The position numbers and the translations under genes were made by a program. Below are positions 1,432 to 60,916 of a stretch of DNA of 64,000 nucleotides, in pieces (position 1 is the stretch's first letter; each line of letters begins with the position of its first letter). This DNA comes from Escherichia phage Lindwurm. The DNA lies in sequence record NC_134264.1; one strand, 5' to 3'. The notes under the pieces are model-generated. The model did not search any database. It saw only the letters and a program-made list of their open reading frames with translations, and had not been told where the DNA came from.

Positions 1432-1869
1432 ATGGCAAGCAATATAAAATATAAACGCGATGCTATATCCCTTATGAGAGACGGAATAAAAAGTCAATAT
1501 AAAAAAGACTCTCAATGTGCTATCTGCGGTTGTGCTGAAGAATTAGAGCTTCATCATTACCATACGGTGTCTCTACTAGTTAAAAAATTTGCTAAAGAAC
1601 TCCAACTGGATTTCACTGACGAAGAAATAGTCCTTTCAAATAGGACGGCATTCTATGATCGATATAGGCATGAGCTAGTAGAAGACACTGTTACCCTTTG
1701 TGTACACCATCACCAATTATTACATAAGGTTTACACAAAAGAACCTCCTTTATTTTCTGCTAATAAGCAAAAAGTGTGGGTTCAAAAGCAGAAAGACAAA
1801 TTACAGAATCCTCAAGAAAAGACACAAGTCAAGACTGAAACAAAATCAGGATTCGCAAGGTTCTTATAA
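1432..1869 (+). CDS. small HNH endonuclease (terminase-associated)
   Basis: CxxC...HH...CxxHH motif (CAICGC, LELHHYH, CVHHHQLLH); start moved to ATG 1432 preceded by AGGAG; lies between terminase and portal. Confidence 0.7.
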   Translation: MASNIKYKRDAISLMRDGIKSQYKKDSQCAICGCAEELELHHYHTVSLLVKKFAKELQLDFTDEEIVLSNRTAFYDRYRHELVEDTVTLCVHHHQLLHKVYTKEPPLFSANKQKVWVQKQKDKLQNPQEKTQVKTETKSGFARFL

Positions 1870-3086
1870 TGGGTTTTAAAAGCTGGATTACTGAAAAGCT
1901 AAATCCGGGTCAACGTATTATAAGAGACATGGAACCAGTTAGTCATCGCACTAACCGTAAGCCTTTTACCACTGGACAAGCCTACAGTAAAATTGAGATT
2001 CTCAATAGAACTGCTAATATGGTTATAGATAGTGCGGCAGAGTGTTCTTATACTGTCGGAGATAAATATAATATTGTCACGTATGCCAATGGCATCAAGG
2101 CAAAGACTCTAGACACTCTCTTAAATGTACGACCTAATCCATTCATGGATATAAGCACATTCCGTAGACTTGTAGTCACTGACCTACTTTTTGAAGGTTG
2201 TGCATACATCTATTGGGATGGCACAGCACTTTATCATGTCCCTGCTGCACTAATGCAAGTAGAGGCAGATGCCAATAAGTTTATCAAAAAATTTATATTT
2301 AATAATCAGATAGACTATCGCGTAGATGAGATTATCTTTATAAAGGATAACAGTTACGTGTGTGGCACAAATTCTCAAATTTCTGGACAATCTCGTGTTG
2401 CTACTGTTATTGACTCTCTTGAGAAGCGTTCTAAGATGCTTAACTTTAAAGAGAAGTTCCTCGATAACGGAACCGTGATTGGTCTTATTCTTGAGACGGA
2501 TGAAATCCTGAACAAGAAATTGCGTGAGCGTAAACAAGAAGAATTACAACTAGATTATAATCCTAGTACTGGTCAGTCCTCTGTCCTGATTCTAGATGGT
2601 GGTATGAAAGCTAAACCGTACTCCCAAATATCCTCTTTTAAAGATCTAGACTTTAAGGAAGACATTGAAGGATTTAATAAATCTATCTGTCTAGCCTTTG
2701 GTGTTCCGCAAGTGTTACTTGATGGCGGTAATAATGCGAACATTCGACCAAACATCGAACTGTTCTACTACATGACTATCATTCCTATGCTGAACAAACT
2801 GACTAGTTCTCTTACTTTCTTTTTTGGTTATAAGATTACTCCTAATACTAAGGAAGTAGCTGCATTAACACCAGATAAAGAAGCTGAGGCTAAACATTTA
2901 ACCTCATTGGTTAATAATGGTATTATGACTGGTAACGAGGCTCGTTTAGAGCTGAACCTTGAACCTTTAGATGATGAGCAGATGGATAAGATTCGTATTC
3001 CTGCTAACGTTGCTGGTTCTGCAACAGGTGTATCTGGTCAAGAAGGTGGCAGACCTCAAGGTTCCACCGAGGGAGATAAAGAATGA
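1869..3086 (+). CDS. portal protein (405 aa, T5 pb7-like)
   Basis: Size and position after terminase; start overlaps upstream stop (TAATG). Confidence 0.8.
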   Translation: MGFKSWITEKLNPGQRIIRDMEPVSHRTNRKPFTTGQAYSKIEILNRTANMVIDSAAECSYTVGDKYNIVTYANGIKAKTLDTLLNVRPNPFMDISTFRRLVVTDLLFEGCAYIYWDGTALYHVPAALMQVEADANKFIKKFIFNNQIDYRVDEIIFIKDNSYVCGTNSQISGQSRVATVIDSLEKRSKMLNFKEKFLDNGTVIGLILETDEILNKKLRERKQEELQLDYNPSTGQSSVLILDGGMKAKPYSQISSFKDLDFKEDIEGFNKSICLAFGVPQVLLDGGNNANIRPNIELFYYMTIIPMLNKLTSSLTFFFGYKITPNTKEVAALTPDKEAEAKHLTSLVNNGIMTGNEARLELNLEPLDDEQMDKIRIPANVAGSATGVSGQEGGRPQGSTEGDKE

Positions 3087-3568: not shown

Positions 3569-4201
3569 ATGACACAAGCTGCTATTGACTATAACAAGTT
3601 AAAATCAGCACCGGTTCATTTAGATGCTTATATTAAATCTATTGATAGCGAATCTAAAGAAGGTGTTGTAAAAATCCGTGGATTCGCTAATACAATTAGT
3701 AAAGATCGCGCTGGTGATGTAATTCCTGCTTCGGCATGGAAAACATCTAATGCACTTGCTAACTACATGAAAAACCCGATTATTCTTTTCGGACACGACC
3801 ATCGTCGTCCAATCGGCAAGTGTATTGATCTTAACCCTACTGAAATGGGTCTCGAAATCGAATGCGAGATCTATGAAAGTTCTGATCCGGCTATCTTTTC
3901 ACTAATTAAAAACGGTGTACTGAAAACTTTTAGTATCGGATTCCGCTGCCTAGATGCAGAGTGGGATGAAGCTACTGATATATTTATTATTAAAGATTTA
4001 GAACTATACGAAGTTTCGGTAGTTTCTGTACCTTGTAATCAGGACTCAACATTCAATCTCGCTAAGAGTATGAATGGGCATGATTACACTGAATGGCGCA
4101 AATCTTTTACTGCAATAAGTTCTAAAGCTGTCCCAGCTCAAGAACGTAATCTTTCTGAACTAGAAAAACTTGCGATAGCTTTAGGCTACGTTAAAGAATA
4201 A
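3569..4201 (+). CDS. prohead maturation protease (210 aa, T5 pb11-like)
   Basis: Position directly upstream of major capsid gene; length as recalled for T5 pb11. Confidence 0.75.
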   Translation: MTQAAIDYNKLKSAPVHLDAYIKSIDSESKEGVVKIRGFANTISKDRAGDVIPASAWKTSNALANYMKNPIILFGHDHRRPIGKCIDLNPTEMGLEIECEIYESSDPAIFSLIKNGVLKTFSIGFRCLDAEWDEATDIFIIKDLELYEVSVVSVPCNQDSTFNLAKSMNGHDYTEWRKSFTAISSKAVPAQERNLSELEKLAIALGYVKE

Positions 4202-38050: not shown

Positions 38051-38132
38051 TCTCCTTTGCACGCTTTCGTGCCTTCTAAATGCAAAAAGGGGAAGGAGCA
38101 TAGCCCCCTCCCCTTAGGTTTAATTTACCAGA

Positions 38133-38900
38133 TTATTCAGCAGCCGCAGCTTTTGCATCCAGTTTAGCACGCTTAGCGGCACCATCATAGTCCTTAGCAA
38201 CCAGACCACGACGAGACAGCATAGATTTAACACCCCGCTCAGACTTACCAGTTTTCTCAGCAATCTCAGCAACAGTCATGTTAACCAGATCCAGACCTTC
38301 TAACAGATCTTCACGAGTTTTAGCACTTGAAGTTTCCTGTACCGGCATAGCAGCAATACGACCTTCACGAAGCAGACTCAGAGCTTTACCACGGATCTGC
38401 TTAATATTGCGACCGAAGTGAGCAGCGATAGCTTCAATAGTAGCACCAGCAACAACCTGATTAACAAAATCAGTTTCTTCATCCGGAGTGAAGGAACGAA
38501 CAGCAGCAGCTTTTTCAGTTGGCTTAACAGAAGCAGTCATTTCCAGACTCAGAATCTTACCTTGTACCTGCTTAGCACCGAACTGACCACCAGCTACAGC
38601 AGCAGCGATTTCAGCATAGGTATACTGACCAGCATGAGCGTTCAGGAAATCAACCAGTTCAGCTTCCTGCTCAGGAGTCCACGGAGATTTCTGCACTTCG
38701 TTAGCTTTTTGTACTTCAAAACCTTCTTTACGCAGTTTAGAGCCAACAGAGCGAGCAGTAACATCTTTGCCGGTTTCCGCAGCCAGTTCAGCAGCGATAG
38801 CAGCTACTTGTTCTTGAGAGATTACAGCAACACCCAGAGCAGTGGCTTTTGCTTTCAGAGACTCGGTTACACCTTCTACGTTCCAGTTCAGTTTAGACAT
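38133..38900 (-). CDS. DNA-binding protein built from four ~30-aa helix-rich repeats (T5 D5-like, putative)
   Basis: Internal repeats (e.g. TYAEIAAAVAGGQFGAKQVQGKILSL / ATIEAIAAHFGRNIKQIRGKALSL / MTVAEIAEKTGKSERGVKSML). Confidence 0.55.
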   Translation of the reverse strand: MSKLNWNVEGVTESLKAKATALGVAVISQEQVAAIAAELAAETGKDVTARSVGSKLRKEGFEVQKANEVQKSPWTPEQEAELVDFLNAHAGQYTYAEIAAAVAGGQFGAKQVQGKILSLEMTASVKPTEKAAAVRSFTPDEETDFVNQVVAGATIEAIAAHFGRNIKQIRGKALSLLREGRIAAMPVQETSSAKTREDLLEGLDLVNMTVAEIAEKTGKSERGVKSMLSRRGLVAKDYDGAAKRAKLDAKAAAAE

Positions 38901-39675
38901 TATTATTTTTCTCCAATAGTTCTTTAATCGACAGGATTTCTATCCCATTCGTTTCGGCTTTCTTATAAGATGAGGAAGAACGCTTCGATTCATCCTCACA
39001 GATTAGGTATTTGACGTCTTTAGTAACGGATTTCTTAACCGTATATCCTAGACCTTCTAAATAGTTTGTTGCATCCGTTCGATTTGCAAAATCTTGCAAA
39101 GATCCGGTAATACATACCGCGATTCCATTTGGCTGGGCAATTAATTCATCTGTAATGATGACGTCAGCTTTAGTGCCCTTAATACCGGTTGAAAATTTCC
39201 ACGGTAGTTCGATAACATCCTTGCCTTGTGGGGAATTTAGCCAGGCTTTATAATTTTCTCCAGCCTTGCCGTCAGCCTTCACATCGTGGAAGCTAGTGCA
39301 ATTTTGGGATAATTTCTTTGCTGCAACCTCTCCAATTAGAGAGATTCCTAAAGAACCGAGAACTGAACCAAAGTCAATGTCTCCGCGAACTTTAGTATTT
39401 AATTCGCTAATTAGCTTAGCGGCAACCTTGCTACCCACGGCTCTAACCAAATCTTCTTCGGTTAGGTAAAATAGTTCTGAAATCTTCGTCAGCTCCAGCT
39501 TCTCAATAGTTTTTGGGCCAAAGCCCTTTAACTTCATTTTTGTACAGAAGTTCTCAATTAACTTACTTGATTGCGCTGGACAGTTGGACTTATTCCGACA
39601 GAATAATTGTCCGTTGACAAGATCTAGCTTAGAACCACAAGAGGGACATTGTGTTGGAATTTCGATTTTCATCAA
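38893..39675 (-). CDS. NAD-dependent DNA ligase, C-terminal subunit (Zn finger, HhH, BRCT-like)
   Basis: CPSCGSKLDLVNGQLFCRNKSNCPAQ zinc ribbon at N-terminus; HhH-like GFGPKTIEKL; own promoter upstream. Confidence 0.8.
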   Translation of the reverse strand: MMKIEIPTQCPSCGSKLDLVNGQLFCRNKSNCPAQSSKLIENFCTKMKLKGFGPKTIEKLELTKISELFYLTEEDLVRAVGSKVAAKLISELNTKVRGDIDFGSVLGSLGISLIGEVAAKKLSQNCTSFHDVKADGKAGENYKAWLNSPQGKDVIELPWKFSTGIKGTKADVIITDELIAQPNGIAVCITGSLQDFANRTDATNYLEGLGYTVKKSVTKDVKYLICEDESKRSSSSYKKAETNGIEILSIKELLEKNNNV

Positions 39676-39702
39676 ATTTCTTCCTTATCAATTTATATAA
39701 AT

Positions 39703-39731
39703 ATTATAGCAAGTATTTAAGCATTTAGCAA
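39703..39731 (-). promoter_or_regulatory. sigma70-like promoter inside the split ligase locus (TTGCTA-17-TATAAT)
   Basis: Read on - strand; followed by AAGGAAG RBS and ATG of the C-terminal ligase subunit. Confidence 0.7.
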
Positions 39732-39874
39732 CTACAATTTTAACTAACTTTGCTTACCCTCGCCATAACTTTCTATCCCTCAACTGAATGATAATAGTAT
39801 ATACCTAAGCGGCGAAAATGTCAATAACCACTTTATAATTCCGATATGGTAGATGGGTAGCAAAGGGTTATGTA

Positions 39875-40846
39875 TTAATCGTATACTCGCTCTACTATGC
39901 ACGGGATTACACCACCAGCACGAATTACTCGAATCTGGCAACCGATCTCTAGATCGAGAGAGTTAATATAATCAACGTTATTAAGGGTCGCTTTAACAAT
40001 TGTAGCATCATCAATAATTACCGGCTCGAAATAACCAACTGGAGTTACTTTACCAGAAGCCCCTACCTGCCACTCAACTTTAGTAAGAGTTGTAATCTCG
40101 CCTTCTTCATCCTCTTTAATAGCGAATGCTCCACGAGGGAATTTATTAGTCCAGCCTTCACGGAAGAATTTGTTGTTGTCATTAATACGAACAACTTTAC
40201 CGTCCGTCGGAATCCATTTAAAGAAGGAACGCACATTAACAACTGTTAAGAAGTCCTCATTCTCTAGCCAAAGCATATCTTTTAAATATGCTTCTGTAAT
40301 ACCTACAGATTCAGCAGAACACTGGATACCGTATGCAACGAAGATTAGACCACCTTCTCCGATACGTTGTACGAAATCATCACTATCTTTGAGGTTAATA
40401 GCACCAGAGGCAAAGTTACGTTTATTTTCTACTTCTTTTGTAATTAGAACTTCACCAGTGATTTGAGTAGGTACTTTTTGGGAAATCTTTTTAGGAATAT
40501 TCAGCAATCTTACGTTGCTTGTGACATCATTCCCTAGAATACCATTACCACGAGTTAGTGCTTGAACAAATTCTCCATTAATATATAACAGAGAAATCGC
40601 ACAACCATCTAACTTATCAGTTTCTACTTGACCTAATGGGTTAAACGGAGGTTTATCCCCACGATTATAATAAACTTTCTGTAAAGAATACATACGATAC
40701 AGATGTGGGATATCTCCTTTAGGCCCAATCTCTTCCTCTATTGGGAATCTTTTAATAAGACGATCATATTCTTCATCAGAGATTAAAGACATTCCCTGGT
40801 AATACGCTTCTTGACAACGTTTAATAAAGTCTTTTACATTAGTCAT
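39875..40846 (-). CDS. NAD-dependent DNA ligase, N-terminal adenylation/OB subunit
   Basis: KxDG adenylation motif (ETDKLDGCA), LigA-type Ia/NTase features. Confidence 0.85.
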   Translation of the reverse strand: MTNVKDFIKRCQEAYYQGMSLISDEEYDRLIKRFPIEEEIGPKGDIPHLYRMYSLQKVYYNRGDKPPFNPLGQVETDKLDGCAISLLYINGEFVQALTRGNGILGNDVTSNVRLLNIPKKISQKVPTQITGEVLITKEVENKRNFASGAINLKDSDDFVQRIGEGGLIFVAYGIQCSAESVGITEAYLKDMLWLENEDFLTVVNVRSFFKWIPTDGKVVRINDNNKFFREGWTNKFPRGAFAIKEDEEGEITTLTKVEWQVGASGKVTPVGYFEPVIIDDATIVKATLNNVDYINSLDLEIGCQIRVIRAGGVIPCIVERVYD

Positions 40847-40877
40847 TTATTTATATCTCTCATCAATTTATATAAAT

Positions 40878-40906
40878 ATTATATAACAAAACTGAGTTGA
40901 AAGCAA
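40878..40906 (-). promoter_or_regulatory. sigma70-like promoter upstream of ligase adenylation subunit (TTGCTT-17-TATAAT)
   Basis: Read on - strand. Confidence 0.65.
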
Positions 40907-40914
40907 ATACATTT

Positions 40915-40948
40915 ATAAAGAAAAAGCCAAGAACTAGGCATTCTTGGC
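40915..40948 (-). terminator. hairpin terminator after PC4-like gene
   Basis: GCCAAGAA/TTCTTGGC stem then T-rich tract on - strand. Confidence 0.55.
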
Positions 40949-41242
40949 TTTGAGTTCTTCAGCTCGTTTCTGTACTTCATGTAAAACCTCAGATTCGCTA
41001 AGAATCTGTGTAAACGCATAGAAAAGCTGTGATGTTGTTTCTAGGGTGTAAGGAAAAGAGAAGCCAGATTTCGTTGGAAACCACTCATCATTAATATCAA
41101 GAAGCCAGTAACGAATACCCATGTATAGATTCCCACGAAATTCAGATACTGTTAATCTTACTTGTTCTCCCTCCTTCTCCCAAAGTATGATGGACTGGTC
41201 ATCAACGTGTCCTTCATAGTTTTGATTTACCTGTTCGCTCAT
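40934..41242 (-). CDS. PC4/YdbC-like ssDNA-binding protein (putative)
   Basis: SEFRGNLYMGIRYWLLDINDEWFPTKSGFSF resembles PC4-type fold signature. Confidence 0.5.
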   Translation of the reverse strand: MSEQVNQNYEGHVDDQSIILWEKEGEQVRLTVSEFRGNLYMGIRYWLLDINDEWFPTKSGFSFPYTLETTSQLFYAFTQILSESEVLHEVQKRAEELKAKNA

Positions 41243-42139: not shown

Positions 42140-42415
42140 TTACTCCACTAGGCCAACAGCGAGCATATCATCGATGCTGGCAACCTCCCAATCGTCCGCA
42201 ATAGCTTCGCATACTGTTAATGCGACAACCTCGCTATACGGATAGTTACCAGCTACCCAAGTATGCTGAGTAACTACATCTGAGTCAGCATCTAGAGTTA
42301 GTAATACTAAGCCATTATTATCATTATCCCAGCTTCTACGATACAGAGTTTTTACTTCCCCATCTTTAAGCAAATCTGTTAGCTTACTCACGGCGTTTTC
42401 CTTTTTCTTTATCAA
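42140..42415 (-). CDS. hypothetical acidic protein (91 aa)
   Basis: ORF with start overlapping upstream gene end. Confidence 0.4.
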   Translation of the reverse strand: MIKKKENAVSKLTDLLKDGEVKTLYRRSWDNDNNGLVLLTLDADSDVVTQHTWVAGNYPYSEVVALTVCEAIADDWEVASIDDMLAVGLVE

Positions 42416-43088
42416 GTTTCAGGGCAGCCTTAACAGCTTCGTTAATCAACGTAATAATTTCTTCACGAGTCCACTTATATCCTAGAGATTTTACGTCAAC
42501 CCCTAGCTTTTCCAGATGTTTAACAGAAGCCAGCTCGTAATTCATATAATGAACGTTCTGTTGTTTGCCTTCTGATAGAAGCCATACACGGTAACAACCA
42601 ACAGGATTATCCATTGCTTTTTTGATTTCACCGATACACTGGTATCCAGGAACCCAAACAAGCTCACCAACTGCAAATTCTTCTGCTACAGCATCATCAG
42701 GAATAATTGGAGGATTCAATGGATCTACAATATCGTTCAAACGAAGCAGAGCACCGTATCGTTCCAGAACAGATTTAACCATTGCTACAGAGCGATAATT
42801 ACGATCGGCAATTTCTTCGAAAGAATCACCAGATAAATACTGCTCAATAACGTTAGCTAACTCAATGCCTTCAATAAGTGTGCCGCGTTTCTTTTTCTTC
42901 ATTTCGGCAACTTGAATCTGACGGTCTTGCCATTCTTCAATCATCCTTTCCATAGTTGGATTGGATGATACGCCGAGCATTTCACATGCTGCTTTCTTAG
43001 TACCACCGTTCTCCAGATGCTCTATAACCTTTTTAAAGACTTCATCGGGGATTTCATGGATATGTTTCTTTCTACGAGAACCAGCCAT
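42384..43088 (-). CDS. putative HTH transcriptional regulator (234 aa), first gene after PN25-like promoter
   Basis: N-terminal HTH-like GGTKKAACEMLGVS; strong promoter and AGGAG RBS upstream. Confidence 0.5.
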   Translation of the reverse strand: MAGSRRKKHIHEIPDEVFKKVIEHLENGGTKKAACEMLGVSSNPTMERMIEEWQDRQIQVAEMKKKKRGTLIEGIELANVIEQYLSGDSFEEIADRNYRSVAMVKSVLERYGALLRLNDIVDPLNPPIIPDDAVAEEFAVGELVWVPGYQCIGEIKKAMDNPVGCYRVWLLSEGKQQNVHYMNYELASVKHLEKLGVDVKSLGYKWTREEIITLINEAVKAALKLDKEKGKRRE

Positions 43089-43119
43089 ATTTAAACTCCT
43101 CTCTCAAATTTATGAATCT

Positions 43120-43148
43120 ATTATACAGAAATTTTTTCCTGAAAGCAA
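43120..43148 (-). promoter_or_regulatory. strong early promoter resembling the classical T5 PN25 promoter
   Basis: - strand reads TTGCTTTCAGGAAAAAATTTCTGTATAATAGATTCATAAATTTGAGAGAGGAGTT, nearly identical to PN25 as I recall it. Confidence 0.8.
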
Positions 43149-60849: not shown

Positions 60850-60878
60850 TTGCTAAACGCTTCAAATTCTCGTATAAT
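60850..60878 (+). promoter_or_regulatory. sigma70-like promoter (TTGCTA-17-TATAAT) with conserved leader
   Basis: Leader ACTTCATAAATTGATAAACAAAAAGGAAAACAAATA before ATG 60917. Confidence 0.75.
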
Positions 60879-60916
60879 ATACTTCATAAATTGATAAACA
60901 AAAAGGAAAACAAATA

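Follow-up and report, generated by a model that had tools for sequence, protein, structure and literature searches.

The two-gene NAD-dependent DNA ligase of Escherichia phage Lindwurm is very probably the ligA–ligB pair of T5-like phages, with a regulatory spacer

We investigated the DNA ligase locus of Escherichia phage Lindwurm in a 64,000-nucleotide (nt) stretch of its genome (NC_134264.1; hereafter, the window). The locus is very probably the ligA–ligB nicotinamide adenine dinucleotide (NAD)-dependent DNA ligase pair of a T5-like phage (Demerecviridae, Tequintavirus), split ancestrally and with a regulatory spacer between the two genes. Two minus-strand open reading frames (ORFs) were confirmed at 39875..40846 and 38893..39675. 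An original prediction, made from the letters of the window, held that they encode the adenylation/OB part and the Zn-finger/helix-hairpin-helix (HhH)/BRCT part of one ligase, and this was borne out by Pfam matches, alignments, and a KLDG motif at residues 78–81 of the first product. The ligase region matched 442 phage records, 428 of them across most of its length at 80–99% identity. The arrangement is already known: the literature and GenBank records have described the T5 split ligase since 2004–2005, ligase subunits A and B are annotated as such in hundreds of phage genomes, and ligA/ligB is the textbook pair of phage T5 and of every Demerecviridae member examined. The contrast with single-chain bacterial LigA, to which the prediction had drawn attention, is thus real, yet it is a known arrangement of the T5 family and no new oddity.

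Results

The upstream gene, ligA (39875..40846, minus strand), encodes the 323-amino-acid (aa) subunit A, to which the ORF, Pfam, and homology to T5 and Providencia phage vB_PreS_PR1 (PR1) assign domain Ia, the adenylation domain, and the OB fold. Its product matched DNA_ligase_aden (PF01653, E = 3.5e-23) and DNA_ligase_OB (PF03120, E = 3.6e-22, residues 252–321). Among 31 homologues, K78, D80, and G81 of the KLDG motif were invariant, as were Y15 and Y27 of domain Ia; Y16 and D28 were nearly invariant, and D24 and many OB residues were invariant or nearly so. In the LigA family, the Tyr and Asp residues of domain Ia bind nicotinamide mononucleotide (NMN) and confer NAD+ specificity. The domain Ia stretch EAYYQGMSLISDEEYDRL aligned globally with a 20-residue segment of E. 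coli LigA, and the N-terminal helices of this domain were seen in a confident AlphaFold2 (AF2) model of subunit A (predicted local distance difference test, pLDDT, 87; template modelling, TM, score 0.81–0.84 to chain A of PDB 9i5i and 9hu3). Subunit A also matched 9hu3 chain A in sequence (E = 5e-104), and it shared 98.8% protein identity and 94.9% DNA identity with T5 LigA.

The downstream gene, ligB (38893..39672, minus strand), encodes subunit B, which combines a Cys4 Zn finger, an HhH region, and a BRCT domain in 259 aa when read from ATG, as assigned from the ORF, Pfam, and homology. The BRCT domain was recognized above the cut-off (PF00533, E = 9e-8), and C9, C12, C25, and C31 at the N-terminus aligned with the Zn-finger cysteines of E. 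coli LigA and were invariant or nearly so among the 31 homologues. Subunit B matched chain B of 9hu3 ('DNA ligase subunit B') with E = 3e-79 and was 96.9% identical in protein and 96.8% identical in DNA to T5 LigB. The AAGGAAG ribosome-binding site (RBS) that had been predicted for this gene was read from the sequence at 39680..39686 (minus strand, running 39686..39680), 7 nt ahead of the ATG; it was invariant in T5-like relatives and found in phage Sugarland too. Since relatives lack a start codon one triplet upstream, and given this 7-nt spacing, ligB most likely starts at ATG 39672 and not at TTG 39675, from which it would encode 260 aa. Both predicted ORFs are therefore present, but the gap between them probably measures 202 bp (39673..39874) rather than 199 bp. 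In Salmonella phage GSW6, the 781-nt ligB (1481..2261 of the compared stretch) contains an indel of 1 nt around codon 120, and its annotation gives two 'NAD-dependent DNA ligase' coding sequences that overlap; the indel is either a sequencing error or the mark of a true pseudogene.

Alignment to bacterial LigA, the check proposed for defining the split point, placed the break where a linker joins the OB fold to the Zn finger, and nothing was missing. Residues 214–320 of subunit A aligned with residues 284–390 of E. coli LigA (2owo), and residues 3–122 of subunit B with residues 402–529 (E = 1e-10). In a global alignment of A plus B against E. coli LigA (a 671-residue sequence consistent with the PDB coordinates), the junction coincided with this short linker and no domain or motif was lost; both subunits end and begin at native domain borders. 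The domain order, Ia–nucleotidyltransferase (NTase)–OB–Zn–HhH–BRCT, is that of single-chain LigA (E. coli 2owo/5tt5; T. filiformis 1dgs), and the KxDG motif, the NMN-binding residues of domain Ia, and the Cys4 Zn finger are common to both. However, E. coli LigA is one chain of 671 aa whereas the Lindwurm ligase consists of 323 + 259 aa, identity is about 25%, and the NTase and HhH regions are shortened in Lindwurm. Each hallmark of the LigA family (KxDG NTase, domain Ia, OB fold, and Cys4 Zn finger/HhH/BRCT) is hence present, except that no single polypeptide holds them all. Because the subunits lie on two ORFs, 202 bp apart with stops in all frames, the enzyme is a split variant of the LigA family, and not a canonical LigA.

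The closest known system is that of T5, with which the Lindwurm locus agrees in the position of A upstream of B, the break between OB fold and Zn finger, the homology of both halves, and synteny. The T5 genes (T5.116/T5.117; AAU05253/AAU05254) have the same order, split point, 202-bp spacer, and neighbors, and differ at the ligase locus only by strain-level nucleotide differences. The T5 enzyme is the 'split NAD+-dependent DNA ligase' of Wang et al. 2005 (Virology 332:45), as cited in PMC1684257. The ligase of PR1, at approximately 56% protein identity, likewise consists of two chains with the same domain split, and its genes are separated by a spacer of similar size (192 bp) that contains a promoter; PR1's own annotation lists a terminator and a promoter inside this spacer, the terminator following ligA, whereas our scan found no terminator there in Lindwurm. 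Chain A of 9hu3 is 100% identical to PR1 (Demerecviridae), and the entry, released on 2026-01-14, is titled 'PR1 phage heterodimeric DNA ligase in complex with 21-mer nicked DNA containing phage nick sequence'; according to its title, 9i5i, released on 2026-02-18, contains the PR1 heterodimeric ligase on a random-sequence nick. Klebsiella phage N1M2 gp125, a jumbo-phage NAD+ ligase whose C-terminal domains are homologous to those of the Lindwurm enzyme (identity with subunit B, about 25%), is only a distant relative, since it is a single unsplit ORF of 657 aa.

Homologues of subunit B were found in 959 phage records, and the ligase was split in every group opened: Tequintavirus, Epseptimavirus, Sugarlandvirus, Priunavirus PR1, Erwinia phage KEY, and Vibrio phages (Ermolyevavirinae and related Vibrio phages). 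A and B co-occurred in the same order in every relative examined. Both sides of the break were conserved in all 14 relatives compared, namely the C-terminus of A, ...GGVIPCIVERVYD (...GGVIPxIVERVxD), and the N-terminus of B, MKIEIPTQCPSCGS (MKIEIPTxCPxCGS). We also surveyed the 120 best matches per half in a collection of 5.8 billion proteins. Except for a partial sequence of 240 aa, the A homologues (down to 46% identity) were 307–337 aa long, with no domains other than adenylation and OB; the B homologues (down to 49% identity) stood alone at 247–263 aa, apart from three truncated entries; and no fused A–B ligase occurred among the 120 best homologues of either half. The only single-chain phage ligases that turned up were those of jumbo phages, N1M2 among them, with an identity of about 25%. 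Because the best homologues all stand alone and the break point is conserved to the residue, the split is presumably ancestral to the clade, and these comparisons point to a single, ancient splitting event at the family's base, at the OB/Zn-finger linker. T5-type ligase subunits with 96–100% identity are also filed under Enterococcus faecalis, Brucella melitensis, and Salmonella enterica in public databases; such bacterial-labelled entries are most likely phage contamination or carry-over in assemblies.

The spacer between the subunits (39673..39874, minus strand) spans 202 bp, is non-coding, and contains stops in every frame on three-frame translation. Its two promoter cores are the two best promoter-like sites of the region. 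The one that had been predicted, at 39703..39731 (minus strand; TTGCTA-17 nt-TATAAT, extended TG; 10/12 in a consensus scan), is the annotated and conserved P-K28a (T5 annotation 'promoter P-K 28a'), but the prediction had missed P-K28b ('promoter P-K 28b'), whose core at 39796..39824 (minus strand; TTGACA-17 nt-TATACT; 11/12) is the better match and the stronger of the two. Mapped by alignment, the 75-nt T5 features fall at 39770..39844 for P-K28b and at 39677..39751 for P-K28a. Shortly after P-K28b comes an 8-codon mini-ORF (MARVSKVS and a stop; 39740..39766, minus strand), preceded by GAGGGA at a distance of 9 nt; it is probably due to chance. PR1 has a 9-codon mini-ORF (MADKPDGNE and a stop) at the equivalent place, and Sugarland has no start codon there. 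A leader peptide was set aside as its explanation, as it lacks a counterpart in Sugarland and the peptide is not conserved in PR1.

In every close relative compared, identity to Lindwurm was higher in the spacer than in the coding flanks. The spacer was 100% identical to those of T5, KPP2018, HK6, and SPLA5b; for T5, the flanking genes were at 94.9% (ligA) and 96.8% (ligB). The corresponding values for spacer, ligA, and ligB were 97.5%, 90.2%, and 94.2% in phagemcphageface, 94.6%, 82.6%, and 90.4% in GSW6, and 70.1%, 67.5%, and 66.3% in Sugarland. Third codon positions of phagemcphageface were 78% (ligA) and 88% (ligB) identical to those of Lindwurm. A multiple alignment showed that both −35/−10 pairs, the leader, and the RBS were kept in Sugarland and recognizable in PR1, and that spacer variation was restricted to the approximately 45 nt adjoining ligA. 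Both promoters persisted in relatives with as little as 56–72% protein identity. Since the spacer is more conserved than its flanks and keeps its promoters in distant relatives, we regard it as functional regulatory DNA and not as a decaying scar.

Such a scar had been raised in the original prediction: an excised mobile element (homing endonuclease, intron, or intein-like) would have split a single-chain gene, and the promoters would have come with it or after it. We consider this origin unlikely. The site does accept insertions, as unrelated small ORFs lie between ligA and ligB in several relatives: one of 64 aa in Salmonella phage smaug (1594..1788; coordinates here are those of the compared stretches), one of 108 aa in Erwinia phage KEY (2014..2340), one of 112 aa together with a DprA-like protein of 186 aa (phrog_768, E = 6e-49) in Vibrio phage Cody (1452..2344), and two of 98 and 43 aa in Vibrio phage D237 (2051..2511). 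T5-like genomes are also rich in HNH endonuclease genes, with hegI and hegJ nearby in T5. However, the intervening ORFs match neither an endonuclease family nor one another; searches of Pfam and PHROGs found no homing endonuclease among those of KEY, Cody, and D237, where all are orphans except the DprA-like protein. The Lindwurm spacer itself has no notable ORF, intron match, or unusual fold. The proposed search for endonuclease or intron remnants gave no Rfam match in 38700..41100 at E <= 1, an RNA fold of the spacer like that of shuffled sequences (z = −0.78), and, within the spacer, no credible ORF of at least 20 aa beyond short overlapping unsupported frames; no inverted repeats were found in the ligase region. 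Neither the structured RNA nor the endonuclease coding expected of a group I/II intron or an intein was thus seen at the break. A scar should moreover decay, whereas the spacer is more constrained than its coding neighbors, and the insertions in relatives fall within the ligA-proximal 45 nt or so and leave the promoter block intact. As they spare this block, they look like later additions to an already split locus, and the ligA-proximal edge is an insertion hot spot, where small accessory ORFs have landed repeatedly.

Several points weigh against reading the locus as a two-subunit ligase with a regulatory spacer. The HhH match in subunit B (PF12826, E = 4e-4) falls short of the curated cut-off. 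In this AT-rich region, consensus promoter matches are no more frequent than in shuffles (6 found vs 7.5 ± 2.9), so the promoter call rests on annotation and conservation, and the names P-K28a and P-K28b come from GenBank annotation. That the subunits form a heterodimer, that the enzyme depends on NAD+, and that the promoters are active is in each case carried over from T5 and PR1. By homology to these two phages, the Lindwurm enzyme would join nicks in an NAD+-dependent manner, and the titles of 9hu3 and 9i5i suggest, through the PR1 homologue, that its A and B chains would form a physical heterodimer.

Alternatively, the two proteins could work independently, A as a minimal ligase in its own right and B as a BRCT/HhH protein that binds DNA or serves as a scaffold without being a ligase subunit. 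B and the next gene, D5, have two promoters of their own, so the amount of B probably differs from that of A, and BRCT domains often mediate protein recruitment. Nevertheless, we find this very improbable: the PR1 homologues were solved jointly as a 'heterodimeric DNA ligase' on nicked DNA, A and B keep the same order in every relative examined, and A-like truncations of single-chain enzymes adenylate and do not ligate. The last point comes from PMC1684257, in which an A-like truncation of Haloferax LigN (LigN-deltaC), prompted by the T5 split ligase, adenylates normally without ligation. Given the LigN truncation and the PR1 heterodimer, it also seems unlikely that subunit B is dispensable for ligation.

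Finally, the idea that a sequencing error or mutation broke a single-chain ligase gene is already refuted, even though a gene that looks split in raw sequence is often a frameshift artefact and GSW6 has a genuine 1-nt indel within ligB: the 202 bp between the ORFs are non-coding and contain several stop codons in each of three frames, and ligB and ligA lie in different frames, so no single frameshift can fuse the two ORFs, as the original prediction had allowed; besides, the junction lacks no ligase residues, the same architecture recurs in hundreds of independently sequenced genomes, protein identity exceeds DNA identity, with both halves under purifying selection, and the two-chain enzyme has a crystal structure.

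The ligase genes belong to the unit P(ligA)-ligA-P-K28b-P-K28a-ligB-D5-terminator. The ligA promoter, TTGCTT-17 nt-TATAAT at 40878..40906 (minus strand), was read from the sequence at a place where a promoter is annotated in T5 and Bf23; it lies below the threshold of the consensus scan, as only 3/6 positions of its −35 box match. Ahead of it are a terminator-like hairpin found by the scan (40923..40951, minus strand) and the PC4-like gene that this hairpin follows (40934..41242, minus strand; PC4-like match). Downstream, the D5 transcription-factor gene (38133..38900, minus strand; Sigma70_r4_2 match and T5 D5 annotation) overlaps the ligB stop by 8 nt with its start (38893..38900). This overlap suggests translational coupling and implies that D5 is co-transcribed with ligB and that the spacer promoters also serve D5, which is a regulator of replication and late transcription. 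A strong terminator-like hairpin (38087..38115, minus strand; 13 pairs, GC-rich, followed by a T run), found by the scan 18 nt after D5, is the likely end of the unit. The Pfam matches of the neighbors reproduced the gene order of the T5 map: PC4-like, ligA, ligB, D5, and D6 DnaB-like helicase.

A repeat search found a 25-nt direct repeat with one copy at P-K28a (39684..39708, minus strand) and the other at the ligA promoter (40859..40883, minus strand), each covering the −10 box and the initial transcribed region. The copies are identical at 24/25 positions and span the −10 hexamer and the first approximately 19 transcribed bases; an exact 22-mer within the repeat occurs twice in the window (64 kb), vs 0.01 occurrences expected. 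The looser box TATAAT-N6/7-ATAAATTGA occurs once more (N7), at 60873..60894 on the plus strand, that is, on the opposite strand and far from the ligase genes. In view of this looser third copy, we take the box to be a feature that recurs in early promoters and that the two ligase genes happen to have in identical form.

Two further observations concern the DNA upstream of ligA. KPP2018 (3640..3828 of its own stretch) and HK6 (3648..3920) have an extra small ORF of 189 and 273 nt, respectively, directly upstream of ligA, which Lindwurm (around 40847..40933) and T5 lack. This ORF accounts for the length differences of 179 and 272 bp in KPP2018 and HK6; their interpretation as spacer changes was rejected, because they are located upstream of ligA. 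Farther upstream, a P-N25 query matched 43101..43148 (minus strand) with 2 mismatches, directly upstream of a D2-like ORF (42384..43088), and the T5 annotation has P-N25 at the same relative position. P-N25 is the classic T5 early promoter, from which the 'T5 promoter' of expression vectors derives.

Discussion

Taken with what is known of homologues and of LigA, the Lindwurm locus would work as follows. Subunit A would bind NAD+ through domain Ia and form a lysyl-AMP adduct at K78. Subunit B would supply the Zn/HhH DNA-binding surface and the BRCT domain, the half that closes the clamp around the nick in single-chain LigA. The two would associate non-covalently and encircle the nick as in the PR1 complex, and together they may seal nicks and Okazaki fragments in phage DNA; A alone would adenylate without ligating, as is the case for LigN-deltaC. 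A single event in an ancestor of the family would have separated the genes, precisely where the linker joins OB fold and Zn finger. P-K28b and P-K28a, as tandem early promoters, would drive ligB and the coupled D5, which read-through from the ligA promoter would also reach. The domains, the split point, homology, and conservation were read directly from Lindwurm and its relatives, and promoter positions from the T5 annotation, whereas the pairing of A with B, the need for B, and the use of NAD+ are inferred from homologues.

As a discovery, the two-gene ligase matters little, because the split was known and there is now a structure of a homologue bound to nicked DNA. For users of the locus, the analysis tidies several matters: there are two conserved promoters between the genes, the spacer is more tightly constrained than the genes on either side, the break point is the same to the residue throughout the family, and the ligA side of the spacer is an insertion edge. 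By annotation, ligB and D5 are read from three promoters (the ligA promoter, P-K28b, and P-K28a) and ligA from one. We see a slim chance that the split persists to uncouple the expression of A and B, with B made in excess for a second job and the 25-nt box tuning output. If this were true, excess B could mark or protect the site-specific nicks of T5-type genomes or recruit partners through its BRCT domain.

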